This document shows, in pieces, positions 868 through 18,451 of a DNA stretch of 57,617 nt. This DNA comes from a virus. Its lineage: Duplodnaviria > Caudoviricetes. The stretch covers positions 1 to 57,617 of IMG/VR virus record IMGVR_UViG_3300046011_006126; one strand, given 5' to 3'. Below the pieces are notes generated by a model that had not been told where the DNA came from, did not search any database, and was given only the letters and a program-made list of their open reading frames with translations. Made by a program: the position numbers and the translations under genes. How positions within the stretch are numbered: the first letter of the stretch is position 1; each line of letters starts with the position of its first letter.

Positions 868-1872
868 ATGGCAACAATAACCAAAAGACCAAGAGCAAAC
901 GGAACAGTAGTTTACCGCGCTGAGATAGTTATAAAGAAAAGTGGCGTAATTGTTCATCGAGATAGCAAGACATTCGACAAAGCAAAGCTGGCCCGTGACT
1001 GGGCAGCAAGGCGAGAAATCGAATTACAAGAAAGCAGCGTATATCAAAAGAATGCTTTTTTACCACTGTCTAAAGTTATCGAAGAATACATCAAGCAATT
1101 TAAGCCACAAGGCAGATCAAAAGTATTTGACCTGAACAAGCTCCAAACACGCGACATTGCAAGGCTTGATGTAAACACACTAACAGCCAGGGACTTGATA
1201 AAGCATGTCAGAGAGCGAAATAAAGAGTGCCAGCCTCAGACAGCTAACAATGACCTGATCTGGATAGGCACTGTCATTAGAACCATGTCGGGAGTCATCA
1301 GCATCAATACCAACATGGGTATCTTTGACGCTGCCCGAGAAGTGCTGAGGCGCGAAGGATTGATCGCTAAGTCATCGAGTCGTGAAAGACTGCCGACTAA
1401 AGATGAATTGTGGAAACTATCACGCCACCTGCACGGGAAACCGGCATTTTCTGTGATGTGGTTTGCTTTGTACTCAGCCAGGAGAATATCGGAAATCACG
1501 CGCATTGATTGGGATGACATAGACCACAATAAGCGCACCTGCATCATTCGGGATTTGAAAGATCCACGAAAGAAAGGCGTTACAAAGAAATGCAAAATAC
1601 CGATTTCGGCTTACAAAGTGATTCTGCGCTACGGTAACAAGAAAGGCCGGATATTTCCCTATCATTCTAAAACCATCGGAAAGTATTTCACGGACGCTTG
1701 CAAGTTGCTAGGCATTAAAGACCTGCACTTCCACGACCTGCGACATGCCGCCACGACTCACCTATTTAGTAAGGGGTTGTCTATTCAGCAAGTGCAGCAG
1801 GTTACGCTGCACTCGACCTGGCAGACGCTACAGCGATACTGCAACCTAAACCCTGATGATTTGGACATATAA
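868..1872 (+). CDS. int: Tyrosine recombinase/integrase (dusA-associated, Rci-related type)
   Basis: SARRISE (catalytic R), FHDLRH, LHSTW..L.RY catalytic motifs; MATITKR...YRAEI N-terminus; adjacent to dusA fragment. Confidence 0.95.
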   Translation: MATITKRPRANGTVVYRAEIVIKKSGVIVHRDSKTFDKAKLARDWAARREIELQESSVYQKNAFLPLSKVIEEYIKQFKPQGRSKVFDLNKLQTRDIARLDVNTLTARDLIKHVRERNKECQPQTANNDLIWIGTVIRTMSGVISINTNMGIFDAAREVLRREGLIAKSSSRERLPTKDELWKLSRHLHGKPAFSVMWFALYSARRISEITRIDWDDIDHNKRTCIIRDLKDPRKKGVTKKCKIPISAYKVILRYGNKKGRIFPYHSKTIGKYFTDACKLLGIKDLHFHDLRHAATTHLFSKGLSIQQVQQVTLHSTWQTLQRYCNLNPDDLDI

Positions 1873-1884
1873 AAACCGGAATGA

Positions 1885-4800
1885 TTACTTAAACTCCCTC
1901 ATTTTCTTGTTGAACGCTTTCATTTCATCGGTGATTTCCTGGTTGACCTCTTTAACCAGCGACTTGGAAACGCCTTCTTGAATCATCATCAATCGCTTGT
2001 CTTTCAGTTTTCCAATTACTTTTTCAGCAACATTGCCTTCAATCATCATGTCCATGGCATTCGGATTTTGCTTTTCAAAGTCATCGATTGATTTGCCCTC
2101 TTTAATCCGGCCTTTAATTTCATTCTCAGCAATGTTTGATTTCAGCAAGTTCTCATAATACTGATCAGACTGCCCTGCTTGGCCGCGTGTGTTTCCATAC
2201 AATCTACCGGCTAACGGTATTTTGTAGGCTGGAAGCTCTTCATTGCTGAATGGCGATGCCAGTACCTCGGCTGTTTTGCTTACCTCACGACCGATACCGC
2301 CAGTCAATTGACCGATTACAAAGTCAATCTGATCAGGTGTTGGTGATAATGCGCCTGGTGCATAATCAGTGCCGCCCGTAGCTGCATTTGCAAACCATGC
2401 AGCACCTTTCCCCCACGGTGTCGCTGTTGCTTTGGAACGCTTAAATCCTGGTGATGGATCAAGGTTTGAAAAATCCTCTCGATAAATCTTTTTACCGGTC
2501 CAGTCTTTATTCTCCCAAAGCGATACAACAGGATCTAGGACTGTTGGCGTAAGCATCTGAGAAAAGCTGCTTGATGATCCCATGGGGTTAAATGCGTCAG
2601 CAATCACACCCGCCAAGCTTGCCATGCGTTTACCCATGTCCTTGCCGCCATCTGCTGCAACCTCGACCGCTATGCGGCCAATATTGGGCAGGAAATTGAA
2701 TCCTAATGGCATAGGGATAGTTAGATAGTCCTCGCCACTGATCGGGATAATAATGGAGCGTTCTTTAATGAACTCGGGTATTTTCTCCCAGTTATCGTCA
2801 TCGCCGCCGCCCATCATCGCCATACCAACCATGGCATTGATTGCGCCCAGCATAATGCCGCCCGTCATGATCTTTTTGCCGGCAGGACCGGATAAAGTTT
2901 CATTCATGCGCGTGGTGCCTTGCAAAGCAGCGTTGAAGAACGCATACAGTGCGCCAAGCTCTCTAGTCTGGCGACCTTTCCGGTTAAAGTTTACCGTCAG
3001 GTTTTTGGCCATTACCGCCGCACGCTCTTTGGTCATGCCATTATCACGGCCTGTTTTGTACGCGGCCAATCTAACAGAATTCTCCATGGCTTCGTTGTAA
3101 TCACTCAACCAATCGGTAATGGCATGAGCCGCTTTGCTGATTTTCCCGCGATCCAATGACTCAATCTCTTTCAGCAACTCTTTGCTTCTGTCCTCTGGAT
3201 TCAGGAACAAGTCACGGTAGCCGGTTGTTCCGCCAACAGTTTCAAATTCGTTATACAGTCTTGCCCACGGTCCAGATTTTGGCATTCTTCCGTTGTTTTT
3301 CAGAACCTCATTCAAGATAGTCATTGTATGCGCCATCACTTCAGACTGGTGTCCAGCCATGCGCGTAGTGCTTAGATTTAATGCGCCTGTTTGTACATCA
3401 CGCATCAAGTTGATAACGCCAAAGATAGGATTGTACTGAGTGTTGACCGATGCCAGCCAGCGCGTACCCTTGCCAATGAACGGAATGATGTAATGCAGGT
3501 CATCAACGTCCAGGTTTTTCATGGCTTGCGCCAGTCGTGCAGCACCAGGATTGTTCTCGTTAAAAACAATCGCGGTATCCTTGCCTGCAATTCTAAGCAT
3601 CAGCACGTTTGGCCGTTGCTTGAATAGTGGATCTACTGTAGTTCTTGCAAAACCATGCTTATCCAGCACCTTGATAGTGGGTACTTTGTCGGTTTTCCAA
3701 TAGTCTGGCAATGGGTTTTGCCGCGCCATCAGGTACAGCCGCTTCATGACGCTGTTTTTCTCGCCCCTAGTAAGTGCTGATTCGCGCTGCATGGCGATAT
3801 GTCCAAGGATATGCGTCACCTTGGCATTGCTACCTACACGACTACGGCTTGCATCACCCTTGGTGCTAAAGCCCTGGCCGATTGGGTGGCTATTGCTATC
3901 GGGGTGCGCTTCATCCCTGTGCAGCGGTATGTAGTGCTTGTATGAACTGCGCCATGCGTCGAGTGATTCTCTTGACTGCAATCCATATCGCTCCAATTCA
4001 TCCAATGTTTTGGTGGTGATGGCATCAACCTGGATAGCCAATGCTTCCATCTGTATCCGTTTGCCTGGTGACAGGTTATTGATAACCATGCTCGCTTCTG
4101 CGTCGGACATGCCAGACAACGATAGACGCTCTTGCTCGGTACCTTTGAAGGCTTGCGTACCTTGCCACTTCGCTTTCTCTTGCTGAGCGACTTCCAGCGC
4201 ATCATTCAGCGACTTGGTTGCGCTGCCGTTTTTACGCGCCAGGAGTAGCTTGCCTTGCAAATCGATAACAGCGTCTTTGGTGCGTTGCTGCTCTGTGTCT
4301 ATTTCATCCCTGCTTGGATTGCGCTTTGCCATTTCCGCATTGGCTTCCGGTGCGTGTCTGGCGTGCAGGAATCGTTCAAACTCTTCGATACTAATGTTGT
4401 TGTTGCGTAATCCAGCCAGCAAGGGCTTCAGTTCATCATTTAAAAAGTCTTTGGTACGCTTAGCCAATCTGCCGTGATAGCGGGTTTCGCCCTCATAAGC
4501 GTCATTCAAATCGCTGACTGTGCCGCCAATGTTTTTGATATGGTCGCGTAATCGTTTCAGGTCGATGTATTTATCCTGAAACTCGTAGATCAGTTTGTCG
4601 ATAGTTTCGGGGCTTGTCAGGTCTTGCAGCTTTGCGCGTAGGCTGCCGATAACTCCTGGTGTGTTACTTGTTAGGTTTCCGCGTGAAAGCCTAATATCTG
4701 GATTGCTAGGATTAAATTCGCCTGTGTTGCTAATCGCTGATTTTATATTTGTTGAGCTTATGACCGCATACTGTGTAGATCTCCAATTTCCTCCCCACCC

Positions 4801-7800
4801 AGGAACGGGTGAATCGTTCATGTTTTTAATTATGACTCCATCTTTTTTTTGCTTTGCTGCCTTTTCAACCAATGAGTATGGGGATTTCGACATAGGGATT
4901 TTGTCGTAACTGTTACCTTTAGCATCAAACTCTATTGCCGATTCAATCTTCAAATAAACAGGGTAAACTGTTTTTCCAGACTTCCAGTAGTCTCCGTCTT
5001 TTGCCTTTATCGGACCATTGTTTTGTCGTGGCGCAGCGGCCAGCGCCCAACCTGATGCAGTAGAAGGGTCATCTGTAAAGAAATGTGCTTTGCTTTTTCC
5101 TGCTCCAATAGTATGTCCTGCTGATTCAATGCCTGACTTAAATTCATAAAAATCAGCATTGGTGCCATGATAAACCACCAACGGCCTACCACTCTCATCC
5201 ACCACTTTAGAATCACCAAACCACCGCCAGAAGTTTTCAACGCCTTCGACGGTGGGGTGTATCGCTTGGCCGTTGCTGTTCAGCGTTGACCGCTCAACAC
5301 CGTCCACGGTAATCGTGGTCTGTCCTTCGGGTAATGGGGTTTGCGTGGTAGTTGGCATATTGCCGCGCGAAAGGAGCGAGTCTAGTCCACTTCTGGCCAA
5401 CCCATCGACGGTTTCAAGTTTTCGAAGTATTTTGGATTTCTCGCTTGGCGAGCTTGATGCAATGGACTTGAGGACAATAGCTCTACGCAGCGTGCTTTCG
5501 CCTGCGCGTATATTTCTTGCTGCTTCCGAAGCTGCGATACCGTCAAGCCAACTTCCTTCGCGAATTCTTCCGAAGTCTGAGGTGTAATGTCCAGTATTGA
5601 AGTCATATCGTGTACTCCTGATTGCAGGTACGTTTTTCTCTACTGTCGAGACTATGGTATCGATCAGATTAAGAATGTTTTGTTCGTAACTTTCGCCCCA
5701 TTGTAGCGGTTTAACACCTTTGCTGGTATCGCCTTTTGCTTGTTCTGGTGATGACCCTAGAAAATCAGTGCTTTTAAATTTTAGCGCAAGTGACAGCATT
5801 GCGTTTGTGCGACGCAGCACAGCATCAGCAGAAAGCCCTGATGGATCGCCAATAAATTGCTGGCCAGAGTTATGAGCATAATTGCCGACCGCTGCATAAA
5901 TGGCGCTGCCATATCCGCCTTGTTTTAAGTTGCTGACATCAATCCATATCTTACCGTTTTCCTCAAATACCCAAAACCTGCGGCCTGTTGGCGTATCAAA
6001 TACAGTTATCTTCTTGCCAGCGCCAAAGTTGTCGTAGGCATACGTTGCCTTTGGAAAAACCTCGCCCATGATCCCGAGCAAATCCTTCTTGCCGCTGACT
6101 GGGTGGCGAAAAACATCATCATCCTTGGTAATTTCATGAAGAACATTGAGTGTCGTTGCCTCTGTAGTCGATAGCCTGGTATCCCAGCTATCATCCCGGC
6201 TATTTGTTTTAACGTAATCCCTTGCCGCCTTAACCAACTCAGCCGCGTACAGTTGCGCCTTGGTTTCGTTGCTGGTCAGCATATCCGCCACGCGGCTAAA
6301 GCCATGAGAGCGGAACCAGTCAGCCATTTTTTGCACGATTCCGCGCCAGCCTTTCAATCCCGCCAACTCGTCGGCAGTCATGTCGGCCAATACTTCTTCA
6401 GTAGCTACCGCATCAGATACCGGGCTTTGCTTTTGGTATTGGGTGGCAAGCTTGCGAACCTTGGCATTATCCCGGTAAATCTTGTTCATTTCCCGATTCA
6501 AGCCATCGCCCAGCACGCCACGCAAACCAATATGCGTAAGCTCATGCTCTGCAAGCACAAACTCAGCACGGTCTATATTGGCTAAGTTATTGGCGAAAAG
6601 GTAAATCTCGCCATTATGCATCGCGCCTTCGACGGTTTCACTCGCGCCTTGCGCAGCGACAATATCTTGCAATGCTTTGGGTGCCTGGTCGATGCTTTCC
6701 AGCACGCGCACTGTGGGCAGTCCTTTGTACTCGCCAGCCACCTTATCAACCAACTTTTGCAGATTATTGACCGGTATGCCTTGCGATATGGTGGATTTAT
6801 TGCCCTTTGATAGAAATGAACCGGACCAAAGCGGGAATCCCATTTCTGCCGCGGCTGTGTCTCCTACAATGGCATCAAGCACGTTTATATCAATGCCCTT
6901 CAAAAACGCGCCGATATTCTGATATTGCGGCGACTTAACCTCTCCTGATGGATCGAAGATGATGGCCGATGCAGTATTTGATACGGATAATGCCCTGTAT
7001 ATAGCCTCCATCATGCCGGTGTTTTTAACTTTGGCCATTTGCTCGGGGCTGATAGCCACAAAGCCTACCGGATAGTTCTGGTTATCCAGCAAGACAATAC
7101 CTGTCTCACCATTGGCAACCTGGGCAGCAATTCTTTTCGCCTTGTCTGGATTTGTAATATCCATGCCGAGCTTTTCATCAGCAACAATCACCCTATCAAC
7201 CACGGGTATTTTCATCACAGGATCTAGTCTTGCGACCCTGCCAGAATCATAATCATCGCTTGATGGGTTTGGATTTTCGTAGGTGTAAAACCCTTTTGGC
7301 GTAGTGGCAAGAATGCCATTTACCTTGATGTTTGTACCGTCAAACGCTGCCTGTATTTTTTGGGTTATGTTCCTGTCTGCATTTGATAGATCAGGCTTGC
7401 CGCTTGGATGGTTATGCACCAGCCACAAATTAGCAGCGCCTTTGATCCTGAAGGCTTCCCCGGTGATTACGGCAGGGTAAACGCTTGCGCCATCAATCGT
7501 GCCTTTGAATGAGCCAACTACCGCCAGCGGCTTGTTGTCTTTGTCGGTTACGATTGCATAGAATCGCTCAACAGCACTAACACCTAAGTCAACAATTGCC
7601 GCCGCGGCATCCCTTGGCGTTTCAATTTTTTCGACACCAATCAGCTTTGTCGTTTCTGAAACAACAGCGGTGCGGGTTGAGAATCTGCCGATTGACTCGT
7701 CTTGTGTTCGTAGCTTTTTGGTGGCGACCACGTTCCGCTTGTTTGCGGGTTGCTGGTTAATCTCTCCTGTTTTCTCAGGTAAAGAATCACCGAACAAGTC

Positions 7801-10800
7801 TTTTTGGTATTCATTGCTATACCTCGCTTTAGGTGTCTCAACATCAACAGACTTTCCCCCAAGCAACTCTACTACAGGGCGTGAGTCAGTGAAACGCTTG
7901 AATGCTTCAATACTATCTATCGGCAAAAAGAATCGATCCTGAAACTGAATGCGCTCAACAAATCCGCCTTGGTTTTTGAAGATGGATTTATCAGCCTCAG
8001 AAAACCAGCCTTTTGGGATTACCTCTAGTCTAGGCTCATAATTGACCATTGCCTTTTTAATGGCGTACCCATTGCCCAATATAGCGGTTGCGCCTGCCTT
8101 GATCCTCGCAATGATTGCATCGGCAGATAGTTTGCTGACACCTGAATCAAGCCCCAGGTTTTTCAGTGTTTTTGCAGCGTCGTCACTATCTAAAAATCTA
8201 CCCAGCAATTGCTCGCCGTCATCCGTCATCATGCGATAGATGGTCGCTGACCCAACAACTCGATCCCAAATCGGCAAAATGACACCTACCAGCATACGGC
8301 CTTTGACAGTTCTTGTTTTTGGCGCTACCTCGACATTGCTTTCCCATAACGCCTTTGCTTCAGCGTCACTAAGCTTTTTGTACAAATCCATTTTTTGATA
8401 GCGGCCCTGGTGAGTCTTGTAATCCCAGCCACGTTCGATCACTTCCGCGTCGTCGATGTAAGACGCTGACCCGTCCACAATGCCATATATTGTGCCTCTG
8501 TGGGTGGTCTTACCTTCAGAGTCAATACGAGTGCCGCGGTTACGCATCATAAACACTTGGCCTTTACGCCTTCCTTGCAGCACTTCATAAAATCCGCTGA
8601 ATTCTTTTCTATCCTCAAGTTCTTGTTTCATGGCCTTAACATCAGACCATGATCTGTAATCAATATCATTGACCGCATCCACTTCGACGTAGCGGGTAAT
8701 GGTCCCGGTTTTTTTGTCGGTGTACGCCACATCATCACGGGTTTTTACAATGCTTTTTGCTGTGAGTGTTTTCATGCCGTCATCATAAAACCCTCTCTGT
8801 TTGGCATACTCAATGGCTTCAATCATGCGCTGCTCAAACGCATCAAACACTTTATTCTGAATGTCTGTTTTAAGTGACAGCATTCTGTTAAGGAACTGCG
8901 GGATTGTCGGAACTTTGTTGCGGGAGAACTGGCCAGTATCCTTGTCTTTTAAGTTAAGCCCCATTTGGCCGGTGGTTTCCTCAAAATCCAAGCCAGGAAT
9001 ACGGCCTGCCGCTAGATCCTGAAAGAAATTATCCAAGCCAGTGCTAGCATATTCACTTTCCAGGTTATCACTCGCGCCAAACATACCCTGGGTATTGGCA
9101 TCACGAGAGCCTTTGGTTAATGCGCCCAACTGATCCAGTCGTCTTGCTACTGTTGAGATAAAGCGTTTTTGCGCTTTCATGTTCAGCACTGGCAAGATGT
9201 AATGCGGTGGTTGTGCTTGATTGGTCCGGTGTGACCGGCCAAACCCTTGAACCGCTGAATCAGCACGCCAGCCAGCTTGTAAAATGTAATGGATGCGCTT
9301 GCGTCTGTTCTTTGCTGTGTTGTCGGCATGGAATGAAAACCCGGTACCGCCCGCGCCTGAGAATACCAAGATTTGTTTTTTATCATCCTGGAAGGCTTCA
9401 GCATCCTTTTCAGATGATGTTTTGCCTAATTTTTCCTCAACAACTTTTAAGTTGCCCTCTTTATCGCGTGTTTGCACAAAGCGTCGACCGCGGCCTGTAA
9501 CCTCTGCGACATTGGCCGAGCCAAAGGTATTGATAATTTCGTCCAGCGGGTTGCCTGGTACGCGAATCTGCTTCAATGTCTCGATCAATTTATCACGCAT
9601 AGCGACCGCTTCAGCATTGAATACCGGGTTGCCATTGGAGTCAGTAGCAGGCACCGATATGATATTGCCGTTGTCGTCAGTTCCTTCGATAAATTGCTGC
9701 ACAGGAAAACCGGTCCTGATGTAATCCATCAGCATTTCACGCGGCGTAAAATCCAAGTCCTCCAGCTCGATTTCGTTGGCTACCGCATCGGCTACCATAC
9801 GCTCTTGCGCTGCCTCATTGGTGTTGACCAATTGAATCAGTACCGCATTGCCGTCATTAAGCTGTTTGTTGATGCTCTCTAAAACAGAAGGCATCGACAT
9901 GGTAGTGATGATTTGCCCAAAGAACCGCAACTGAGCGCCCCAAAACCGCGACATGGTTGCGCCCTTGGCATCGCCATTGCTTCCTTGGTTGGTGGCTTCC
10001 AGCGCCTCAGTGATATTGTTTAAAACAATCTGCCAAGCCCCGGCCAGTTCGTTGTAAATATCTTCTTGCAGGTCCGTTAACTCATGCTCAAGCCGTTCAT
10101 AGGTAACACCGTCATACGACAGTGATCGAGCAATGTACATGCCCATGGCTTTCATATCCCGGCTAATCAACTCCATGGCAGCAATACCGCCCTGGCTCAT
10201 GTTGTTGATAAATGCCGATGGATTGGCAAATGGCGTGCCTTCACCCCATAGCCCCAGGCGATTAGCGTAAGTCAGGTTGCTGATTTCGGTAGCGCCGGTA
10301 GCTGACACATACACCACTCTCGCATTAGGTAAGGCGTTTTGCAGCTCAATACCCGCTAAAGCCTGCGCCGATGGCTTTTTGTTTCCCCGCTTGCCTTTCA
10401 TGGCAATAGCGTTGCCCATTGAGTGTGCTTCATCGAACGCAATCACACCGTCAAAGTCAGGACCAAGCCAATCAATAATTTGTTGCACTCGGGATTTGCC
10501 CGCCTCTTGACCAAGATCGGTGGCTTTCTTTTTCTCGCCGCCCCTTAGTGTGGTGTAAGGCACGAACAAGATCCCTTTATCGCGTTTCAATTCATCCTTG
10601 GCGCTGCCTGGTGCAAATATCAAAGCAGGATCGCCACCAACACCTTCAAAGTCTCGCTTGGCATCCTTCATCAATCCTTTATTGAAGGATACCCATATTG
10701 CTTTATCTCGGCCTTGTTGCAAGTTATCCAGGATAATGCCGGATATTTCCCGGCCCTTGCCGACCCCTGTGCCGTCCCCCACAAAAAAGCCTCGACGGAA

Positions 10801-13800
10801 TTTTTCACCTGGCAGCATTTCAGAGTGCGCCTGTCCAGCATAGACAACTGTTTCAAGCTGGGCAATCGATAGCTTGCCATCCTCTATGACGCTTTTTGGT
10901 AGCGATGGTCGATAAGTCGGTGCTGGTGGCTCAACCGCAGCCATGGCCGACGATTGGACTAGGTTTCCTGGGTGCGGCTTTGCGCCCGGTATGCTGAGTC
11001 GTTGCGGCTGGTAGTTTGAAAATATAGAATCAGTAAAATCAGCCTGATTGTTTACCGACTCTACGGTAACTGATCCCGTGCTGCTATTTCCCGTGCTATT
11101 TCCAGCAGTATCCAATTGGCTGCTTCCGCCAGGTTTTCCGGTAGCTGCCCCAGTGTCACTTTGTCCCCGTCCTCCGTTTCCGTCAGCAGGCTCATTGCCT
11201 TTTCCGGCTTGTGATTGAGTGCCGTTATTAGCAGCTCCGGCTGAGGTATCTCCCGGTAAACGTCCAGTTGGTTGCGTTCCGCCGCTATCCTGGCTAGTGC
11301 CATTATTGCGAGTTCCGTCTGCGGGTTGAATGTTTCCTTGTTGCGTCGAAGTATTATTGCTGCCTGCCGATTGACTGGCAGCTTGTTGAGTTGGGCGTGT
11401 TCGGTCATTTTTAATACCCTCTAAAAGTTTGGGTAACTCGGCCACGGATTCGACCTGACCCGTTAAGATAGGCTGCGTGGTAGCGCCTGTTTTATCAATC
11501 ACCAGGATTTGATTATCAAACGTGGTGCCGTATTTTGCGTACTCTTTTCCAGATATACCAATATTGGCGCGAACATTGTACTTTTTGCCAATGTTGGACC
11601 ACCATTTTTTAAACGCGGGCTTTCCGTCAGCCATACCGTTGCCAACAATCGCCACCAGTCGGCCACCATCCGGCAACCTGGCTAATGCTTGCTCCAAATG
11701 CTTAGCCCCATTCATGGTGTCACGCTGGCCTTTTATGCGGCCTGCTGTTGACGAAAATGGGGGATTCATCACGACAACAGTAGGTATAGCATCTTTGGGT
11801 AAAATGTTATTGAGCTGTTCGGCGTTTTCGTTAAATATCCTTGCGCCAGGAAATAAAGGTCTAAGCAACTCAATCCTACGCGCAGACAATTCATTCAAGA
11901 TCAGTTTTGCTCCTGCAATGTCGGCCCATACTGCCAGGTCGCCAGTGCCGGCTGATGGCTCCATCATGGTGTCTTGATCGGTAACATTCGCCACCCAGTT
12001 CGCCACAAAGGATAATGCTGGTGGCGTACTGAATTGCTGGAACTCGTCCATTTCCTCGTCACGCTTGGTTTGCGTGGGTAATGCCTGGATAAGATTATTC
12101 AACTCTTTGGCTTTGTTTGCTGCCCATCGTGCGTTTTGCTGTGACCAGTCAGCCTTTTCAGTATTCATAAGATACAGATTGACCGCGGCTTCCATAGCAT
12201 CGTAAGCGTCTTTTGCTGTGTACCTGCCTTGCGCCTGTGTTCCGCCGAACGCTTTATCCGCTGCATCCGTCAATTGCTTGCTGGTGAATCCCGCCTCACT
12301 AATCAGGATTTCAGCAAGCGCATCAGCCAGCTTTATGCGCGCACTTGTCGCTTCTTTTTCGGACAGTTCAGGTTTCTGGAAAGGGGATTCCTCCTTTCCA
12401 GACTTAGGCGTTGATTTTTCAAATAGCTCTTGTGCGTATTTTTCAGCCTTATCAACTGTGTTAAAGATTCGCATACCATCCATGGTAAGACCGCTATCGT
12501 TGTCTTTTATGGATACCGAGAACTCTCTGCCGCCGTTTATTCTGGCAATGTTGATTTCAAGATTATCTTCAGCTATTGGAATGGTTTTTATAACCTTTGA
12601 CGATGTGTGTTCTTCTTCAAACTTGGCGTTATCCTCCATTCTGCCAACTTGAGTAGCTGCCCATTTTGCCAGTTCAGCCGTACTAATATCCCATGGAAGC
12701 CAATTGTTTGTGCCTCGGTTTGCAGACTTGTCTTTAACCACTGGATTGCTTGCGTATCGCGCCATAATGGCCACGCCTTGCGGGTGTGACTTCCCACCAG
12801 CACTTACAGTTGAAACACCGACCTGAATATAAATAGCCGAATTTCCCTTTTGCATAGCTAAGTACACATCACCAGAACCCGCTGGACCGCCTTCATTTGC
12901 TACTACGGGTTTCTCGGCTTTGCCTTTCTTGTCGGTATAAGGACTAAAGCCATCCTTGGTCAGCAGGTCAGCGACTTGATTCAGATACTTTTTAGTGTTG
13001 TTCAAAAACTCCGTTTTGATCTTGCCGCCTTTGCCGTCGTCGCGTTCAGAGTCGTAACCGTCGATATGCTCAACACCCCAATCAGCCTTCAGCTTCAGGT
13101 TGCCCAGCGGGTCAAACTTTTGCTTTTCGACCTTGGGCGATTGGCCTATTACTGGCGCCGGAATGCTGGCAATGTAATCGTTAATTGCTTTAACTACTGC
13201 GTCAACAGTCTCCTTGTTATCGTGATACTGCTCGATGCTTTTTGCACGCCCATCAAACACCTTGAACCTTGCAACCTGCTTGCCTGTCTCGGTAGTAACC
13301 ATCATCCAGCCGGATTGTTTGCCATCGGTTACGACAAATTTCCGTGCGCTTGATTCTTCATTCTGGAAAGGGGATTTCTCCTTTCCAGAATCTTCAACCC
13401 TTTGCCACCTGGTATTTTTATATTGGCTGAAGTTGCCTATGGATATATCCATTTTTCCGGCATCATCCCTAGTTTTAAAGCCGATGGAATGCTCGGTAAC
13501 ATAACTGACTTCACGCGCTGGCTTGCCATCGAATGACCACATTTCACCATGATGAACGCCCCATCTGTCCGCCGCTTCTAGCTCGGCATGGCTGGTCATG
13601 TCCTTTTTATCCATGCCAGGATAAGCGCGCACAGACTCATAGAATGACCGCAGGTAAGGTCTAACGCCTTCGCCTAAGTCAGCAACCATGGCCTTGGTGT
13701 AATCAGCAAATGACTTAGCACCAGCCTCGATGTAAGCACCAGCCAGCACCATGCCATCTAATGCAAGCTCTGGATCAAAGCCGCTATTCAGCGTGCCTAG

Positions 13801-16800
13801 CTTGGCTTTTAAACGCTCACGAGCAGCCGCTACTTTATCAGCCGTAAATATCTTGTTGTCTTTGAATCGTTCGGCATCAAGCTCTGCCTGGTCAAATTCC
13901 CCGGTAGACTTGCCCGGTACTTCCTCGGTATTGCCGCCACCCTGGAGAATTTCAACTATTTGGTCGATCAACTCAGATACCGGCGTAAATTGCCCGTACA
14001 AATCACTTGATGCTTTTTCCAGCATCGGGATATAGCTAATGATGGTTTTTTTATTGCGCAACTCGTCAGCAACCGTTTCCAGTGTGCGAATGGCGTTACC
14101 TTCTTTTGTATTTCTATCAATGCGATTCTGATCGCGCACTTGCTTGGCAACCAGCGTCAATCTATCTGCCTGCTCCCTTTCCATATCACCATTGATATGC
14201 GTTCCTGGCGCATCTTTTGATACTGGTCGCTTTCCGCCAACTCCTTTGTCTGACAGCGCCTTCTCTCCGGCTATCATGCTTTTTCTTTCGCCTGGGCTGA
14301 CTTCTTTCCATTTTGATCCTGATAGGCGATGCACTACGGCCCGCATCCCACCAAGGTCACTGGCTTGAGCAATGGATTGTCGTTGACCGTAATCCATTGC
14401 ATCCCATTTCGCGCCGAATGCTTGATCGTTATTTGACTGAGATTCGGAATTTTCAGTCAGTTCCGCACCGTTCGTGGCTTGCGTGTTTGATGGTTGCTTG
14501 ATTGAATCAATGTAATCGATAACAGCCTTAGCAATATCAGCAGCATTGGCCCTTGATCCGTCCATGCCAAGCCTTGCTTTTGTCATGACATTTACGCCAT
14601 GACCAAATGCCATATCGAACGGACCCCATCCTTCCGATGTTATCCCGAATGTTGCAGCAAGTTTTACCCTGTCAGATTGTTTGGGTGCTTTTTTGCCTTC
14701 GCGCCATGCTTTATCAGCAAGGTTTTGCTGCTTGATTACCTCTTCTGCAATCGCCTGAGCAATGGATTCTTTTTTGGCAATCAGTATTTGTTCTTCTGAT
14801 TGCGCTGGAATGTCAGCAATATCCACCTGGCCGGCCATATCCGCATTATCCGAAAACAATGCTGGTGGCTCTTTCCCGTCACCTTTGCGCTTGGCATCTT
14901 TAGCCGCGGCAATATCAGCAATCGCTTGCTGAGTGTCTAATGCTTGCTGTTCTGCGTCAGAGTTGACAAATAGATCAGTTTCAACTGGCTTGCCTTTTGG
15001 CTTAGGTGCGCCAGGTATGGTTTCACCTGTCACCATTTTGACGTAAGCCGCCACCTTGTCAGCCATAGGCAGGTCTTTAAAGCCTGCCGCCGCCATGACA
15101 TTAGCAGCCTCGTAGAGTGCTTTTATTTTTCCGCGTGAAGTTAGGTCGTTGATAATGGCCTGCGGATTGGCTTTGAATTTATCAGCCGCCGCTTGGGCTT
15201 CTGCGCTTATTCCACCGCTGGCTTGCTTGCGTGTTTTATCGCTCTCTTCAGAGCCGCGTTCAATTTCTGGCTCCCCGTCCCGTCGTTGTTCAGCTTCAGC
15301 CTTCCCCGTCTTACCGCTTCCCTGAGTACCACTCCCTGCCTTTCCAGTGCGCTGAGCTTCTTCATCGCTTGGCGAAACTGCTCCCGCTTGGATTTCTGGC
15401 CCGAAGATGGCGTCGAGGTCTGTTTCTGTAATGCTTGTTCCTGTTGATCCATTGAATAATGCCTCTAAAAGTAAGTCTATGTCATCATCTTCCAAATCAG
15501 GCGCAAGGTTATCGGCCTCAATTATGGCTTGACGTTCAATTATGGCTTCTGGATCATCAGCCGGCGATGTTTCGTAATCACTGCCAGTGTCAACCGGTCT
15601 TTCATTGCTACCGATATTATCGATGTGATCCAGCATAGCAGATACAGAGCGTCTTTCCTTGGCTCCCATTGGCTCGCCGTTAATGGCTTTTTGCACAGCA
15701 GCGACGGTATCAACCGCATTTAAACGCGAGTCTTTTGGAATTTCTAAATACCAGTCTGCTTTTGGTATCCAGGTTGTTCGGCTTTTCTTTCCTGTTGAGT
15801 CAATTATTAGCCTGCCGCCCTCTTGCGCCCACCCTGCATTGTCGGCCATGGCTTTCAATGTATCAACATTCTCGCTCAGCCTGGTATCGTCAAACGGCTT
15901 TAAGCGTGACTGATTAGGTGTTTTAGCGGTTTTAGCGGGTTCTGTTTTTGCAACAATGCCATTACGTTCATCCCTTAATTTATCGGCTTCACGTTGCAAT
16001 GACGCTTGCACAGGTCCGGTTCTGGTTGGTAACTGTGCTTCAATTTCAGAGAGTCGGCTATCAATTCTGGCTACACGCTCACGCTCGACTGGCAAAAGGC
16101 GTGATAGGTTTTCTTTGCTCTCCGGCTGGCTTGGCGCGGATTCGTCTGGTATTTCAGATAGCCTTTTCCCAACAATCTGCCTAACAAGGTCTATCGGAAT
16201 AGAACCTTTGTTATTTGGAACAGATCCTTCGCCATTGCCAATAAAAACCTCATCCTCTACCCATGAATCGCGGCCATACTTTGATAGATCAATATCTTTA
16301 TTAAACAGAAACCTTCTCGTTTTTTGATTTGCGCCATCGCCTATAACGTAATCAAAAACGGTTCCTGCCGGTATAAAGTCTTTGCTTAATTTATTTTCTC
16401 CGGCAATAGGTTGGTCCTGGTGAATTCCACCATCGCCAGCAGTCGCTTGTTCTCCTGTAGGAGATATTGCACCTTGTTCGACAGATCCACGTTCTCCCGC
16501 AATAATTCCCTGACTATTCCCGGTCGCTGTTCCGCCAGTTTGAGTTTCATCTAATGTTCCTCTATCGATTGGATTACCGGGTTGATCAGTTTGTGCGGGT
16601 ACTGGTCCAGCATTTCCGCCAGTTCCTCCCGCATTAACTCCTGATATTCCTGGTTGATTGCTGCTTCCAGTTCCGACACTCGCTGTCTCAACAAGTGGAT
16701 TTCCTGAATCTGCTCGTTGATCAACTTCTGTGCTGCTTCCGGTGGGATTATTGGCATCGATGTTCTCCAGTGGTTTTTCATATCCATCGGGATCAAACAG

Positions 16801-18414
16801 TGAGCCGTCCTGAGTTTCAAAAGCGTTTTCCTCTTGATTAAACCGGACCGGCGTACCATCGCTTAATGTATGAGTTGGAACAAAGCTTACTTCTTGGGCG
16901 GGCGTTTGCCCGGTTTCTTGCAGGCCATTAGGCTCTCCTGTTGGGGCTAAAGGGCTTGATGCGGGATCTTGTTGTCCAGTTCCGCTAATTTCTGGCGAAA
17001 CAATGCCTTCTGCTGGTTGTACTCCGCCAGCTTGTTCAGTTTGTTGTTCTGGAAACTGGGCTTCAGTAGTCGCTTGATCATCGATAATTTGTTGCGCAAG
17101 GGTTGCATACTCGGTTTTTTCTTCGGGGGTTAAGTCTCGTTGCTCGGCTTGTATCTCGATTTCAGACAGTCGGCCAAAGATTTCATCCTGGCTGATTGGG
17201 CTTGTACCCGTAGCTGCTGCGGGTTGTGCTGCGGGCATAACTGGTGCAGCTTCGGGTGTAGCAAGGTCAATAGGTTGATCTTGCCCGGTGAATGGCTGTT
17301 GATTGACTTGTTCTGCTGATGGTTGTGGCGCTACATCTTTTGCCGGTGGTGTATTGATTGCACCACCTACGCCGCCCATAACAGCACCGCCCAGCGCACC
17401 CAGGCCAGCCGCATCAATGGCTTGCTTTCTGTTTTCGTCGCTGAATGGATCGTTACCTTTACCCCATTCTTCCGCCAGGGTTTGTCCGTACTCGGTTAAT
17501 CCCTCTGCGGGAGCCGCGCCAATGCCAGCAATACCACCCCTAGCCAGTCGTGAGCCTATATCCTTCTTGCCGGCCAGACCTTTAACCAGGCTGGATTTGC
17601 CAGTCAGAATATCCAAGCCAAGTTTGTCGCCTAAAAACTCCATGCTGCCAGCGGCTACGGTTGCACCAAAGGCCCGCGCCAAATCATCGCCGGTTAACTT
17701 TCTGCCCTCTGTGTCTGCTTTGTCGACCAGGCCGCCACCAATCTCGCCGCCTTCCATGCCAAACGCATTGGCACCGATGGCCGCAGTTGCTCCCATTCCA
17801 CCAATTCTTTCAGCGACATTTCTAACCGCCATTTGCTGAATCATGTCAGCAGTCAATTCGCCGCTGGCCACTTTTGCAGCCTCGATGCCTGCTAATTTGC
17901 TGGCTTCTGTAGCGACCATCTTTTCTGTTAATTGCTGAGCCGCTACTTTAGCGCCGGCTTTTGCTGCAACACTACCCAGGCCCGCAGTAGCCAGCATTTG
18001 TAAACCTTGCCCACCAGCATAGCCAATGCCGTAGCCCATCCAGTCGGCCAGTGCGCCTAAGTCGCCCTGCTTGGCTCTATCCCATGAATAGGTTAATGAG
18101 TCTGTTGGTTGGCTGTGTTCTTCAAGTGCTTTGCTTTCTGCGCGATAGTTTTCAAGGCCGTGCTTTTTAATGCCCGAGCTAATGCCGCCCTCGCCTAATA
18201 AGTTTTCGCCGGTCGCGCCTAATGCCGCCTCAACACCATAGGCCAGTTGTGGAAGTTGTCTAAAGGTATTTTTAAAGCCGCGAGTGATATTGCCATCTTC
18301 ATCCGGCTTTTTAGCGTCTGTCGATAGGCCGAAATCTGGATCGGTTGACAGGTATTCGTTGTCGCCGCTTGAATCTAATCCGAAGTTTGGATCAGTTGAT
18401 AAATAGTCTGACAT
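1885..18414 (-). CDS. Giant polyvalent (DarB-like) virion-injected protein, ~5509 aa
   Basis: Single ORF; probable start ATG 18414 after GGAG. Motifs: MTase QQFSTP/EPSAGTG/NPPF (~11.4-12.3 kb); Strawberry-notch helicase GDGTGVGKGRE, FDEAH, SATG, QGFGRSHRTNQ (~8.7-11.05 kb); JAB HNHPSG..S..D (~7.4 kb); HELTH peptidase (~6.54 kb); GNAT-like QGGYGSAIY (~5.9 kb); ART-like WFGDSKVVD..PLVVYHGT (~4.7-5.3 kb); LPD38-like C-terminus. Confidence 0.93.
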   Translation of the reverse strand: MSDYLSTDPNFGLDSSGDNEYLSTDPDFGLSTDAKKPDEDGNITRGFKNTFRQLPQLAYGVEAALGATGENLLGEGGISSGIKKHGLENYRAESKALEEHSQPTDSLTYSWDRAKQGDLGALADWMGYGIGYAGGQGLQMLATAGLGSVAAKAGAKVAAQQLTEKMVATEASKLAGIEAAKVASGELTADMIQQMAVRNVAERIGGMGATAAIGANAFGMEGGEIGGGLVDKADTEGRKLTGDDLARAFGATVAAGSMEFLGDKLGLDILTGKSSLVKGLAGKKDIGSRLARGGIAGIGAAPAEGLTEYGQTLAEEWGKGNDPFSDENRKQAIDAAGLGALGGAVMGGVGGAINTPPAKDVAPQPSAEQVNQQPFTGQDQPIDLATPEAAPVMPAAQPAAATGTSPISQDEIFGRLSEIEIQAEQRDLTPEEKTEYATLAQQIIDDQATTEAQFPEQQTEQAGGVQPAEGIVSPEISGTGQQDPASSPLAPTGEPNGLQETGQTPAQEVSFVPTHTLSDGTPVRFNQEENAFETQDGSLFDPDGYEKPLENIDANNPTGSSTEVDQRADSGNPLVETASVGTGSSNQPGISGVNAGGTGGNAGPVPAQTDQPGNPIDRGTLDETQTGGTATGNSQGIIAGERGSVEQGAISPTGEQATAGDGGIHQDQPIAGENKLSKDFIPAGTVFDYVIGDGANQKTRRFLFNKDIDLSKYGRDSWVEDEVFIGNGEGSVPNNKGSIPIDLVRQIVGKRLSEIPDESAPSQPESKENLSRLLPVERERVARIDSRLSEIEAQLPTRTGPVQASLQREADKLRDERNGIVAKTEPAKTAKTPNQSRLKPFDDTRLSENVDTLKAMADNAGWAQEGGRLIIDSTGKKSRTTWIPKADWYLEIPKDSRLNAVDTVAAVQKAINGEPMGAKERRSVSAMLDHIDNIGSNERPVDTGSDYETSPADDPEAIIERQAIIEADNLAPDLEDDDIDLLLEALFNGSTGTSITETDLDAIFGPEIQAGAVSPSDEEAQRTGKAGSGTQGSGKTGKAEAEQRRDGEPEIERGSEESDKTRKQASGGISAEAQAAADKFKANPQAIINDLTSRGKIKALYEAANVMAAAGFKDLPMADKVAAYVKMVTGETIPGAPKPKGKPVETDLFVNSDAEQQALDTQQAIADIAAAKDAKRKGDGKEPPALFSDNADMAGQVDIADIPAQSEEQILIAKKESIAQAIAEEVIKQQNLADKAWREGKKAPKQSDRVKLAATFGITSEGWGPFDMAFGHGVNVMTKARLGMDGSRANAADIAKAVIDYIDSIKQPSNTQATNGAELTENSESQSNNDQAFGAKWDAMDYGQRQSIAQASDLGGMRAVVHRLSGSKWKEVSPGERKSMIAGEKALSDKGVGGKRPVSKDAPGTHINGDMEREQADRLTLVAKQVRDQNRIDRNTKEGNAIRTLETVADELRNKKTIISYIPMLEKASSDLYGQFTPVSELIDQIVEILQGGGNTEEVPGKSTGEFDQAELDAERFKDNKIFTADKVAAARERLKAKLGTLNSGFDPELALDGMVLAGAYIEAGAKSFADYTKAMVADLGEGVRPYLRSFYESVRAYPGMDKKDMTSHAELEAADRWGVHHGEMWSFDGKPAREVSYVTEHSIGFKTRDDAGKMDISIGNFSQYKNTRWQRVEDSGKEKSPFQNEESSARKFVVTDGKQSGWMMVTTETGKQVARFKVFDGRAKSIEQYHDNKETVDAVVKAINDYIASIPAPVIGQSPKVEKQKFDPLGNLKLKADWGVEHIDGYDSERDDGKGGKIKTEFLNNTKKYLNQVADLLTKDGFSPYTDKKGKAEKPVVANEGGPAGSGDVYLAMQKGNSAIYIQVGVSTVSAGGKSHPQGVAIMARYASNPVVKDKSANRGTNNWLPWDISTAELAKWAATQVGRMEDNAKFEEEHTSSKVIKTIPIAEDNLEINIARINGGREFSVSIKDNDSGLTMDGMRIFNTVDKAEKYAQELFEKSTPKSGKEESPFQKPELSEKEATSARIKLADALAEILISEAGFTSKQLTDAADKAFGGTQAQGRYTAKDAYDAMEAAVNLYLMNTEKADWSQQNARWAANKAKELNNLIQALPTQTKRDEEMDEFQQFSTPPALSFVANWVANVTDQDTMMEPSAGTGDLAVWADIAGAKLILNELSARRIELLRPLFPGARIFNENAEQLNNILPKDAIPTVVVMNPPFSSTAGRIKGQRDTMNGAKHLEQALARLPDGGRLVAIVGNGMADGKPAFKKWWSNIGKKYNVRANIGISGKEYAKYGTTFDNQILVIDKTGATTQPILTGQVESVAELPKLLEGIKNDRTRPTQQAASQSAGSNNTSTQQGNIQPADGTRNNGTSQDSGGTQPTGRLPGDTSAGAANNGTQSQAGKGNEPADGNGGRGQSDTGAATGKPGGSSQLDTAGNSTGNSSTGSVTVESVNNQADFTDSIFSNYQPQRLSIPGAKPHPGNLVQSSAMAAVEPPAPTYRPSLPKSVIEDGKLSIAQLETVVYAGQAHSEMLPGEKFRRGFFVGDGTGVGKGREISGIILDNLQQGRDKAIWVSFNKGLMKDAKRDFEGVGGDPALIFAPGSAKDELKRDKGILFVPYTTLRGGEKKKATDLGQEAGKSRVQQIIDWLGPDFDGVIAFDEAHSMGNAIAMKGKRGNKKPSAQALAGIELQNALPNARVVYVSATGATEISNLTYANRLGLWGEGTPFANPSAFINNMSQGGIAAMELISRDMKAMGMYIARSLSYDGVTYERLEHELTDLQEDIYNELAGAWQIVLNNITEALEATNQGSNGDAKGATMSRFWGAQLRFFGQIITTMSMPSVLESINKQLNDGNAVLIQLVNTNEAAQERMVADAVANEIELEDLDFTPREMLMDYIRTGFPVQQFIEGTDDNGNIISVPATDSNGNPVFNAEAVAMRDKLIETLKQIRVPGNPLDEIINTFGSANVAEVTGRGRRFVQTRDKEGNLKVVEEKLGKTSSEKDAEAFQDDKKQILVFSGAGGTGFSFHADNTAKNRRKRIHYILQAGWRADSAVQGFGRSHRTNQAQPPHYILPVLNMKAQKRFISTVARRLDQLGALTKGSRDANTQGMFGASDNLESEYASTGLDNFFQDLAAGRIPGLDFEETTGQMGLNLKDKDTGQFSRNKVPTIPQFLNRMLSLKTDIQNKVFDAFEQRMIEAIEYAKQRGFYDDGMKTLTAKSIVKTRDDVAYTDKKTGTITRYVEVDAVNDIDYRSWSDVKAMKQELEDRKEFSGFYEVLQGRRKGQVFMMRNRGTRIDSEGKTTHRGTIYGIVDGSASYIDDAEVIERGWDYKTHQGRYQKMDLYKKLSDAEAKALWESNVEVAPKTRTVKGRMLVGVILPIWDRVVGSATIYRMMTDDGEQLLGRFLDSDDAAKTLKNLGLDSGVSKLSADAIIARIKAGATAILGNGYAIKKAMVNYEPRLEVIPKGWFSEADKSIFKNQGGFVERIQFQDRFFLPIDSIEAFKRFTDSRPVVELLGGKSVDVETPKARYSNEYQKDLFGDSLPEKTGEINQQPANKRNVVATKKLRTQDESIGRFSTRTAVVSETTKLIGVEKIETPRDAAAAIVDLGVSAVERFYAIVTDKDNKPLAVVGSFKGTIDGASVYPAVITGEAFRIKGAANLWLVHNHPSGKPDLSNADRNITQKIQAAFDGTNIKVNGILATTPKGFYTYENPNPSSDDYDSGRVARLDPVMKIPVVDRVIVADEKLGMDITNPDKAKRIAAQVANGETGIVLLDNQNYPVGFVAISPEQMAKVKNTGMMEAIYRALSVSNTASAIIFDPSGEVKSPQYQNIGAFLKGIDINVLDAIVGDTAAAEMGFPLWSGSFLSKGNKSTISQGIPVNNLQKLVDKVAGEYKGLPTVRVLESIDQAPKALQDIVAAQGASETVEGAMHNGEIYLFANNLANIDRAEFVLAEHELTHIGLRGVLGDGLNREMNKIYRDNAKVRKLATQYQKQSPVSDAVATEEVLADMTADELAGLKGWRGIVQKMADWFRSHGFSRVADMLTSNETKAQLYAAELVKAARDYVKTNSRDDSWDTRLSTTEATTLNVLHEITKDDDVFRHPVSGKKDLLGIMGEVFPKATYAYDNFGAGKKITVFDTPTGRRFWVFEENGKIWIDVSNLKQGGYGSAIYAAVGNYAHNSGQQFIGDPSGLSADAVLRRTNAMLSLALKFKSTDFLGSSPEQAKGDTSKGVKPLQWGESYEQNILNLIDTIVSTVEKNVPAIRSTRYDFNTGHYTSDFGRIREGSWLDGIAASEAARNIRAGESTLRRAIVLKSIASSSPSEKSKILRKLETVDGLARSGLDSLLSRGNMPTTTQTPLPEGQTTITVDGVERSTLNSNGQAIHPTVEGVENFWRWFGDSKVVDESGRPLVVYHGTNADFYEFKSGIESAGHTIGAGKSKAHFFTDDPSTASGWALAAAPRQNNGPIKAKDGDYWKSGKTVYPVYLKIESAIEFDAKGNSYDKIPMSKSPYSLVEKAAKQKKDGVIIKNMNDSPVPGWGGNWRSTQYAVISSTNIKSAISNTGEFNPSNPDIRLSRGNLTSNTPGVIGSLRAKLQDLTSPETIDKLIYEFQDKYIDLKRLRDHIKNIGGTVSDLNDAYEGETRYHGRLAKRTKDFLNDELKPLLAGLRNNNISIEEFERFLHARHAPEANAEMAKRNPSRDEIDTEQQRTKDAVIDLQGKLLLARKNGSATKSLNDALEVAQQEKAKWQGTQAFKGTEQERLSLSGMSDAEASMVINNLSPGKRIQMEALAIQVDAITTKTLDELERYGLQSRESLDAWRSSYKHYIPLHRDEAHPDSNSHPIGQGFSTKGDASRSRVGSNAKVTHILGHIAMQRESALTRGEKNSVMKRLYLMARQNPLPDYWKTDKVPTIKVLDKHGFARTTVDPLFKQRPNVLMLRIAGKDTAIVFNENNPGAARLAQAMKNLDVDDLHYIIPFIGKGTRWLASVNTQYNPIFGVINLMRDVQTGALNLSTTRMAGHQSEVMAHTMTILNEVLKNNGRMPKSGPWARLYNEFETVGGTTGYRDLFLNPEDRSKELLKEIESLDRGKISKAAHAITDWLSDYNEAMENSVRLAAYKTGRDNGMTKERAAVMAKNLTVNFNRKGRQTRELGALYAFFNAALQGTTRMNETLSGPAGKKIMTGGIMLGAINAMVGMAMMGGGDDDNWEKIPEFIKERSIIIPISGEDYLTIPMPLGFNFLPNIGRIAVEVAADGGKDMGKRMASLAGVIADAFNPMGSSSSFSQMLTPTVLDPVVSLWENKDWTGKKIYREDFSNLDPSPGFKRSKATATPWGKGAAWFANAATGGTDYAPGALSPTPDQIDFVIGQLTGGIGREVSKTAEVLASPFSNEELPAYKIPLAGRLYGNTRGQAGQSDQYYENLLKSNIAENEIKGRIKEGKSIDDFEKQNPNAMDMMIEGNVAEKVIGKLKDKRLMMIQEGVSKSLVKEVNQEITDEMKAFNKKMREFK
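5382..5606 (-). CDS. Overprinted +1-frame gene inside giant gene (74 aa, helical, HTH-like start)
   Basis: AGGAG-tacacgat-ATG; MTSILDITPQTSEEFAKEVGLTVSQLRKQQEIYAQAKARCVELL... Confidence 0.6.
   Translation of the reverse strand: MTSILDITPQTSEEFAKEVGLTVSQLRKQQEIYAQAKARCVELLSSSPLHQARQARNPKYFENLKPSMGWPEVD
7641..7814 (-). CDS. Possible overprinted +1-frame gene inside giant gene (57 aa)
   Basis: GAGGT-atagca-ATG; product MNTKKTCSVILYLRKQERL... is less protein-like than the other nested ORFs. Confidence 0.3.
   Translation of the reverse strand: MNTKKTCSVILYLRKQERLTSNPQTSGTWSPPKSYEHKTSQSADSQPAPLLFQKRQS
11061..11408 (-). CDS. Overprinted +1-frame gene inside giant gene (115 aa, globular-looking)
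   Basis: GAGGG-tattaaaa-ATG; amphipathic helical product, while the main frame here is G/S/T/Q/N low-complexity linker between MTase and helicase. Confidence 0.7.
   Translation of the reverse strand: MTEHAQLNKLPVNRQAAIILRRNKETFNPQTELAIMALARIAAERNQLDVYREIPQPELLITALNHKPEKAMSLLTETEDGDKVTLGQLPENLAEAANWILLEIAREIAARDQLP
12374..12402. repeat. Palindromic site, copy 1 (TCTGGAAAGG-N8-CCTTTCCAGA)
   Basis: ttctggaaagg ggattcct cctttccaga; encodes SGKEESPFQ in the giant protein. Confidence 0.85.
13361..13390. repeat. Palindromic site, copy 2 (TTCTGGAAAGG-N8-CCTTTCCAGAA)
   Basis: Perfect 11-bp arms, spacer ggatttct; direct repeat of 12374-12402; encodes SGKEKSPFQ. Confidence 0.85.
15207..15452 (-). CDS. 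Overprinted +1-frame gene inside giant gene (81 aa, basic helical)
   Basis: GAGG-cattattca-ATG; KREQFRQAMKKLSALERQGVVLREAVRRG...; main frame is G/S/E/K linker. Confidence 0.55.
   Translation of the reverse strand: MDQQEQALQKQTSTPSSGQKSKREQFRQAMKKLSALERQGVVLREAVRRGRLKLNNDGTGSQKLNAALKRAIKHASKPAVE
16386..16550 (-). CDS. Overprinted +1-frame gene inside giant gene (54 aa, coiled coil)
   Basis: GAGG-aacattag-ATG directly after the TAG of the 16551-16757 ORF; MKLKLAEQRPGIVRELLRENVDLSNKVQYLLQENKRLLAMVEFTRTNLLPEKIN. Confidence 0.6.
   Translation of the reverse strand: MKLKLAEQRPGIVRELLRENVDLSNKVQYLLQENKRLLAMVEFTRTNLLPEKIN
16551..16757 (-). CDS. Overprinted +1-frame gene inside giant gene (68 aa, coiled coil)
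   Basis: GGAG-aacatcg-ATG; MPIIPPEAAQKLINEQIQEIHLLRQRVSELEAAINQEYQELMREELAEMLDQY... Confidence 0.65.
   Translation of the reverse strand: MPIIPPEAAQKLINEQIQEIHLLRQRVSELEAAINQEYQELMREELAEMLDQYPHKLINPVIQSIEEH
16887..16928 (-). CDS. Overprinted +1-frame basic micropeptide MACKKPGKRPPKK
   Basis: AGGAG-agccta-ATG GCC TGC AAG AAA CCG GGC AAA CGC CCG CCC AAG AAG TAA. Confidence 0.45.
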   Translation of the reverse strand: MACKKPGKRPPKK

Positions 18415-18451
18415 ACAGGGCAATCTCCATAGGATATGCCCCGCATTTTCT

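Follow-up and report, generated by a model that had tools for sequence, protein, structure and literature searches.

In a 57,617-nucleotide (nt) stretch of viral DNA (Duplodnaviria, Caudoviricetes; IMG/VR record IMGVR_UViG_3300046011_006126, positions 1 to 57,617), referred to below in its full length as the window, a 74-codon open reading frame (ORF) lies on the minus strand at 5382..5606 (ATG at 5606-5604, stop codon at 5384-5382 and included in the coordinates). It occupies the +1 frame of a giant polyvalent-protein gene (1885..18423, minus strand), spans residues 4273-4347 of the giant protein, and its product in the window would have a mass of 8.4 kDa and an isoelectric point (pI) of 6.6. 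On comparison with homologous loci, we regard this nested ORF as very probably a real, translated gene. It is probably also a genuine overprinted small gene, placed over the C-terminal third of the LPD37 domain, with a product whose function is tied to that domain. An earlier note, made from the sequence alone, had read here a 74-codon ORF behind a Shine-Dalgarno (SD)-like AGGAG (5615..5619, minus strand) with an 8-nt spacer, all of which is present as described, and its view of a real gene with its own ribosome-binding site is borne out by conservation over about 80 homologous loci, with 1 stop against 96.6 expected. The same note had located the ORF between two domains; instead, it lies inside the last third of LPD37 (PF18853; residues 4094-4323, 5455..6144, minus strand), which is modelled as folded by AlphaFold2, and overlaps the final 51 residues of the Pfam match and 24 residues beyond.

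Conservation of the nested frame

DNA searches with the window returned a single 96-nt match among phages and none among plasmids, and an exact 23-mer search of viral contigs had no match. Since no close-relative DNA was available as loci, contigs from metagenome runs were used for close relatives. The LPD37 segment had 471 relatives among giant proteins, including those of Erwinia phages PEp14, Pavtok and Stean, and relatives covering most of the segment were about 27-45% identical to that of the window. Loci were fetched with a profile of the window segment and nine matches (10 rows), which yielded 50 metagenome contigs, 24 viral contigs and 28 bacterial genomes or metagenome-assembled genomes (MAGs); a single-protein locus scan gave ART matches only, and a 4-row alignment gave PEp14 only. 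The main set comprised 54 distinct sequences, including the window, mapped on the LPD37 profile, with a median pairwise identity of 34% and 43 clusters at 60% identity. Seventeen exact duplicates, one locus at a contig end (L073) and seven loci with poor cover (L034, L042, L046, L058, L068, L071 and L077) were left out, and L035, likewise cut by the end of its contig, contributed nothing to the stretch and did not enter the counts. In L046, a metagenome contig of 2136 nt, the LPD37 main frame breaks within the overlap and the sequence resumes in the other frame, which is either a frameshift of the giant gene or an assembly error.

The number of +1 stops to be expected was calculated from each adjacent amino-acid pair and the locus's own codon usage, and summed along the alignment. 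Over giant residues 4275-4334, the single stop against 96.6 expected was counted in the 54 homologues, and with one representative per cluster (43 sequences) there was 1 stop where 80.1 were expected (Poisson P 1.4e-33). In the flanks, with 12 bins on the upstream side and 6 on the downstream side, observed-to-expected ratios stayed at 0.69-1.43, which indicates good calibration of the expectation. In the next bin past the stretch, +1 stops are back at once (42 observed, 36.3 expected), and the +2 frame over the same stretch shows no stop depletion except for one bin at 0.50. A proline (Pro) conserved in the nested frame is preceded by at least 47 open codons and followed by at least 23 in 54 of 54 sequences. 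Another +1 ORF, of 77 codons at 5007-5240 (minus strand) over the start of ART-PolyVal, provided a control within the same gene: in homologues its two bins contain 19 and 16 +1 stops, and this ORF is due to chance.

A profile of the nested peptides, with 50 members, matched a single place in a six-frame scan of the window. Among loci that had not been used for it, the +1 frame was matched in Erwinia phages (E about 1e-17) and in L034, L036, L042, L068, L071 and L077; five of the seven poor-cover loci were thereby matched in this frame, and L058, which is cut, gave a weak match. The 28 bacterial genome and MAG loci, none of them in the profile, carry record labels of Proteobacteria of several classes, Verrucomicrobiota and a Saccharibacteria MAG, and 26 of them were matched in the +1 frame with E from 1e-24 to 5e-9. 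L102, which was unmatched, lacks that part of LPD37. In L110, a Burkholderiales MAG contig with a diverged nested motif and no profile match, the giant frame stops soon after LPD37 and the +1 frame is open for about 150 codons; the nested gene may be extended there, or the locus may be decaying. Public protein sets hold seven proteins of 74 amino acids (aa) that are 73-91% identical to the window's nested product, some of them labelled 'hypothetical protein' and on contigs of up to 18.6 kb, together with seven more distant nested-type proteins of 72-92 aa.

The overlap leaves its mark on the codons of the main frame, mainly in the conserved core of the nested protein (residues 35-64; 5415..5504, minus strand), for which the alignment and frozen main-frame third positions are evidence. 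These frozen positions are at giant residues 4314, 4317, 4320, 4322, 4329, 4332, 4333 and 4336. At residue 4320 the main-frame amino acid may be serine, threonine or alanine, yet the codon ends in C in 52 of 54 sequences, which gives the nested CCN Pro. Residue 4332 (leucine, isoleucine or valine) has xTA in 38 of 53, and residue 4333 (leucine) has YTG in 46 of 54, followed by G, and the two together give nested TAY-TGG (Tyr-Trp). In the nested codons it is the third position that wobbles (CCN for Pro, TAY for Tyr), with the first and second fixed. The ratio of +1 to main-frame pairwise identity was 0.83 in the core, compared to 0.44-0.59 in control stretches. In the main frame the second codon position is the most conserved within the overlap, as usual; since this frame is patterned normally and modelled as folded, the stretch is a case of true dual coding and not a mis-called frame. 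Variants among close relatives were taken from contigs of four lake and freshwater metagenome runs, and 40 listed variants were counted and 21 further ones were not. The listed variants were main-frame-synonymous in 30 of 32 cases outside the nested ORF and in 3 of 8 inside it, and 4 of the 8 inside alter a main-frame residue and are silent in the nested frame (Fisher 0.0015). Cover gaps in the run contigs, and their loose ends at 5415 and 5623, were taken for homologous sequence that has diverged rather than for junctions, and were not used. By these comparisons, purifying selection could be shown to act on both reading frames of this DNA in all lineages analysed.

Start signals are enriched where the nested frame opens. 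An ATG within -5..+2 codons of the window's start was present in 37 of 54 sequences, compared to 24.7 expected by synonymous resampling, and none of 20,000 simulations reached 37. An SD core (AGGA, GGAG, GAGG or AAGG, 5-17 nt upstream of the ATG) was found at 17 of these 37 nested ATGs and at 365 of 3248 other internal ATGs of the same genes (Fisher 1.6e-7). In 53 of 54 sequences the open stretch contains an ATG before the core, and the window's own ATG derives from a conserved main-frame Tyr-Asp (TAT GAC). The enrichment of starts favours independent internal initiation over frameshifting, and by the alignment the nested gene could be shown to have a conserved start region (ATG plus SD core) and a conserved end.

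Judged in the window alone, the length of the nested ORF is unremarkable. The giant gene has 6 ORFs that reach 74 aa in its +1 frame, and the nested one ranks sixth; 500 synonymous-codon shuffles gave 5.02 +/- 1.58 of this size, and for ORFs of at least 50 aa the count was 18 compared to 14.2 +/- 2.6 in shuffles. Of the 13 AGGAG sequences in the 16.5-kb gene, just two have an ATG 5-10 nt further on, and the one not belonging to the nested ORF opens a frame of just 13 codons; among 40 longest-ORF starts in the window, any 4-nt SD core was found at 10 and AGGAG at 2. A call of chance, by which this would be one of the out-of-frame ORFs common in a long gene that merely stands behind an AGGAG, can be made on window evidence only, where the ORF count and the lack of a Pfam, PHROG, NCBIfam or PADLOC match for the window's product agree with it. 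We give it almost no weight, because the frame is open in homologues of such low identity with calibrated flanks, synonymous sites are frozen and starts enriched, the profile replicates in independent loci, the neighbouring 77-codon ORF is not kept open, and the loci are not near-identical copies. Nearly as improbable is a constraint at the level of the nucleic acid, such as RNA structure, an internal promoter or a packaging signal. Synonymous constraint alone cannot separate coding from non-coding overlap; here, however, the signal is frame-specific, with +1 stops gone and +2 stops normal or in excess, and it includes wobble at nested third positions, enriched ATGs, nested peptides recovered by the profile in the right frame in new loci, and close-relative variants that are silent in the nested frame. 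A further alternative is a trans-frame product, in which a programmed +1 (or -2) frameshift or transcriptional slippage would give a truncated giant protein with the nested C-terminus and without ART and LPD38. Phages do use frameshifts to produce two products, the start codon is not fixed in position, one homologue (Pavtok) has no ATG, and, depending on the homologue, the open +1 frame reaches back 1-65 codons beyond the window's start. This alternative is nevertheless unlikely, given the ATGs and SD cores enriched where the frame opens, the ATG in all sequences of the main set but one, and upstream bins with normal +1 stop density; moreover, 12 of 54 sequences have their last upstream +1 stop just 1-5 codons ahead of the start, so that a common shift site would hardly fit in between.

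The nested protein and its link to LPD37

Nested proteins are 62-118 aa long (median 84), and their conservation is concentrated in the C-terminal core, with the motif R-[CL]-x-E-x-x-S-S-x-P-[LF]-[HY]-x-x-R-A...P-x-Y-[WF]-x-x-[LF]. In three metagenome contigs (L013, L014 and L025) the nested frame is longer, at 99-108 aa, and they share an extra C-terminal tail pattern (...FSL..L.KMS..EIV...), forming a sub-family with an added segment. No hydrophobic segment was found in the 50 members (best 19-residue window 1.05, threshold 1.6), and 2 of 50 have a lipobox-like string. AlphaFold2 with a 50-row alignment gave a mean predicted local distance difference test (pLDDT) value of 79.5, reaching 87-96 over residues 21-60, with modelled helices at 12-19, 23-44 and 48-56. 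The product is predicted to be a soluble helical protein of about 60-120 aa. A Pfam scan of the 50 members found no family in more than one member (best E 0.0065), and the nested profile had no match among PDB sequences. Foldseek with the nested model found nothing significant (best PDB match lambda cII, E about 10; best BFVD match, E 3.7), and a look-up in the ESM Atlas gave no usable match.

Five LPD37 proteins that lack ART-PolyVal keep the nested gene (P0008, P0015, P0013, P0040 and P0043), and the nested profile matched none of 4 loci that share only ART with the window. Loci were tied to the stored giant proteins by exact peptide match and the absence of ART was taken from precomputed Pfam lists; P0013 is on an 11.7-kb contig and possibly cut. 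Since ART-less LPD37 proteins carry it, the nested gene travels with LPD37 and not with ART. The earlier note had proposed checking whether the ORF co-occurs with one domain across homologues, and it does co-occur with LPD37, regardless of ART. The nested gene cannot be physically separated from LPD37 and follows this domain through shuffling, which makes a function linked to LPD37 the most likely one; this is the weakest step of the argument, its basis being that linkage and a parallel drawn with conflict systems. A complex prediction of residues 1-250 of the LPD37 segment with the nested protein scored 0.00 in two runs without controls, which speaks neither for nor against binding. That the nested protein is a partner of LPD37 is a tentative proposal, for which we see slightly less than an even chance, and that it is specifically an inhibitor is rather doubtful.

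The earlier note had suggested a helix-turn-helix (HTH) antitoxin that neutralizes the ART or GNAT toxin domain beside it in the giant protein. In conflict systems, toxic domains commonly have small partners, and the gene is real by the evidence above and genetically inseparable from an effector protein. In addition, Iyer et al. 2017 (PMC5512222) class the ART and GNAT domains found in polyvalent proteins with those of conflict systems. However, the gene tracks LPD37, as the five ART-less proteins and the 4 unmatched ART-only loci show, and LPD37 shows no relationship to GNAT. The stretch read as HTH-like, residues 13-28, falls in the unconserved N-terminal part of the protein and has no significant fold or family match; the only Pfam hint was E 0.056 in 1 of 50 members, the best Foldseek matches were those given above, and the pI is not consistently basic. 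We consider such an HTH antitoxin unlikely. By analogy, an antitoxin function as such is a possibility, and its partner would then be LPD37 rather than ART.

Under our reading of an overprinted gene tied to LPD37, the nested protein would be made by internal initiation on the late mRNA that it shares with the giant virion effector. As a soluble helical protein of the cytoplasm, of about 60-120 aa, it would act in the producing cell, where it might hold LPD37 inactive in the manner of an immunity protein or antitoxin. Alternatively, it might aid the folding or packaging of LPD37 like a chaperone, or it might have an independent accessory role. It is conceivable, though we would not expect it, that the embedded gene is a dedicated inhibitor or chaperone of the very domain sharing its DNA, which would make effector and keeper indivisible under domain shuffling. 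If so, this effector-immunity linkage would be an architecture not described before, and LPD37 would be an active, potentially self-harmful effector.

Several observations weigh against our reading. Overall conservation of the nested protein is weak, with a mean column identity of 18%, one Pro that is nearly invariant and an N-terminal half free to vary, and the main frame is better conserved than the nested frame and is itself modelled as folded. Since the pI spans 4.6 to 10.6 across the family, there is no shared charge property pointing to a ligand. The high AlphaFold2 confidence is on short helices and came without an out-of-frame control for calibration, and searches of family, fold and defence libraries gave no match pointing to function. 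The start position varies, since the first ATG of the open stretch coincides with that of the window in 18 of 54 sequences, precedes it by three codons in 14 and takes other positions in the remaining ones, and Pavtok has a 90-codon open stretch with no ATG and TTG only. Some homologues are interrelated, as seen from the 43 clusters among 54 sequences. A freshwater metatranscriptome contig of 555 nt (5068-5622) matches the window without a difference over the nested gene, with one end shortly before the nested SD, and this RNA-library contig shows neither transcription nor translation of the gene; its end cannot mark a transcript end, and DNA carry-over is possible.

The giant gene and its neighbourhood

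The host gene is a single 16.5-kb ORF of 5512 codons from TTG, and is the last gene of a late structural operon that includes terminase, portal, major head protein, internal virion protein and a tail-fibre-like gene. Its listed TTG start directly abuts a GGAGA (18412-18423 region, minus strand), and an ATG at 18414-18412, three codons past the TTG and with GGAGA 10 nt upstream, is more likely the start of the giant gene. Pfam domains of the giant protein are a Sno-type helicase (AAA_34 and Helicase_C_4), RadC, LPD37, ART-PolyVal and, at the C-terminus, LPD38, and PHROGs additionally gave DarB-like antirestriction and DNA methylase matches. LPD37 was matched with E 5.1e-63 (213.3 bits, cut-off 27) over profile positions 2-241 of 243, and ART-PolyVal (PF18760; residues 4409-4570, 4714..5199, minus strand) with E 4.5e-15 (57.1 bits, cut-off 31.2); the latter begins 62 residues downstream of the nested ORF. 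Just beyond the end of the giant gene, a tyrosine-integrase-like gene at 868-1872 (plus strand; PHROG integrase, E 5e-37) points to a temperate phage, or to a record that includes the end of a prophage.

The flank called GNAT-like in the earlier note corresponds to Pfam LPD37, and neither Pfam, Foldseek nor a PDB profile search related it to GNAT, so this identity was dropped. The AlphaFold2 model of LPD37 has a pLDDT of about 90 over residues 10-240 of the segment. Foldseek against PDB found nothing at E <= 0.001, the best match being a YopJ-type acetyltransferase (E 0.011, TM 0.13), and the LPD37 profile found no relative among PDB sequences. A 10-row alignment contains the invariant polar residues D, S, N, R, Q and R, a hint that LPD37 is an enzyme of unassigned fold.

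Novelty and relation to known systems

Only the giant coding sequence is annotated over the nested stretch in the records of Erwinia phages PEp14, Pavtok and Stean. Polyvalent proteins are large multi-domain effectors of phages and conjugative elements, thought to be delivered together with their DNA (Iyer et al. 2017, PMC5512222), and the words 'overlapping' and 'frameshift' do not occur in the text of that paper. Nor was a description of the nested gene found in the openly accessible literature on polyvalent proteins, LPD37, DarB and phage overlapping genes, supplements aside. The gene thus appears to be unannotated and undescribed, and the nested ORFs are, as judged from sequence comparison, a new overprinted gene family.

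Since the hidden gene is conserved in phage and prophage-like loci from assemblies labelled with at least three bacterial phyla, LPD37 genes encode more than their annotation shows. Overlaps of this kind are forbidden by gene callers, and most LPD domains in polyvalent proteins have no assigned role. The nested gene would provide a concrete handle on the function of LPD37, and among phages with double-stranded DNA it is an unusually clean, statistically overwhelming case of deep dual coding. The scan of observed against expected stops can be applied to all polyvalent-protein domains.

The spanin genes of phage lambda offer a close parallel, in which Rz1 is embedded in Rz on the same strand, shifted to the +1 frame, and starts independently. 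Its product is a secreted lipoprotein whose membrane partner is encoded by the host gene. Similarly, the nested gene is a small gene wholly inside a larger phage late gene, and both products would come from one mRNA. Unlike Rz1, the nested family has no hydrophobic segment and a lipobox-like string in only the two members mentioned, and it sits within the sequence for a single domain of a giant virion effector, with a partner relation that is here a proposal. Type II antitoxins and the immunity genes of polymorphic toxins resemble it in being small proteins tightly linked to an effector gene through domain shuffling; the nested gene differs from both in being embedded rather than adjacent, and it has no match to an antitoxin DNA-binding fold or family. 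The host protein itself resembles the DarB-like, LPD37-containing polyvalent proteins (Iyer et al. 2017, PMC5512222; Erwinia phages PEp14, Pavtok and Stean), with a methylase-helicase dyad, RadC, LPD37, ART-PolyVal and LPD38.

Overprinted accessory genes of viruses, in which a second frame is laid over an older structured coding region, are treated in Pavesi 2021 (PMC8227390). Like them, the nested gene has a short, younger-looking product, which is in part poorly conserved and probably disordered, and it imposes synonymous constraint on the host frame. Unlike them, it resides in a mobile domain module found in many polyvalent architectures, in phage and prophage-like loci alike. Since this module recurs across assemblies labelled as Proteobacteria, Verrucomicrobiota and Saccharibacteria, conservation of the nested gene is deep and not restricted to one lineage.

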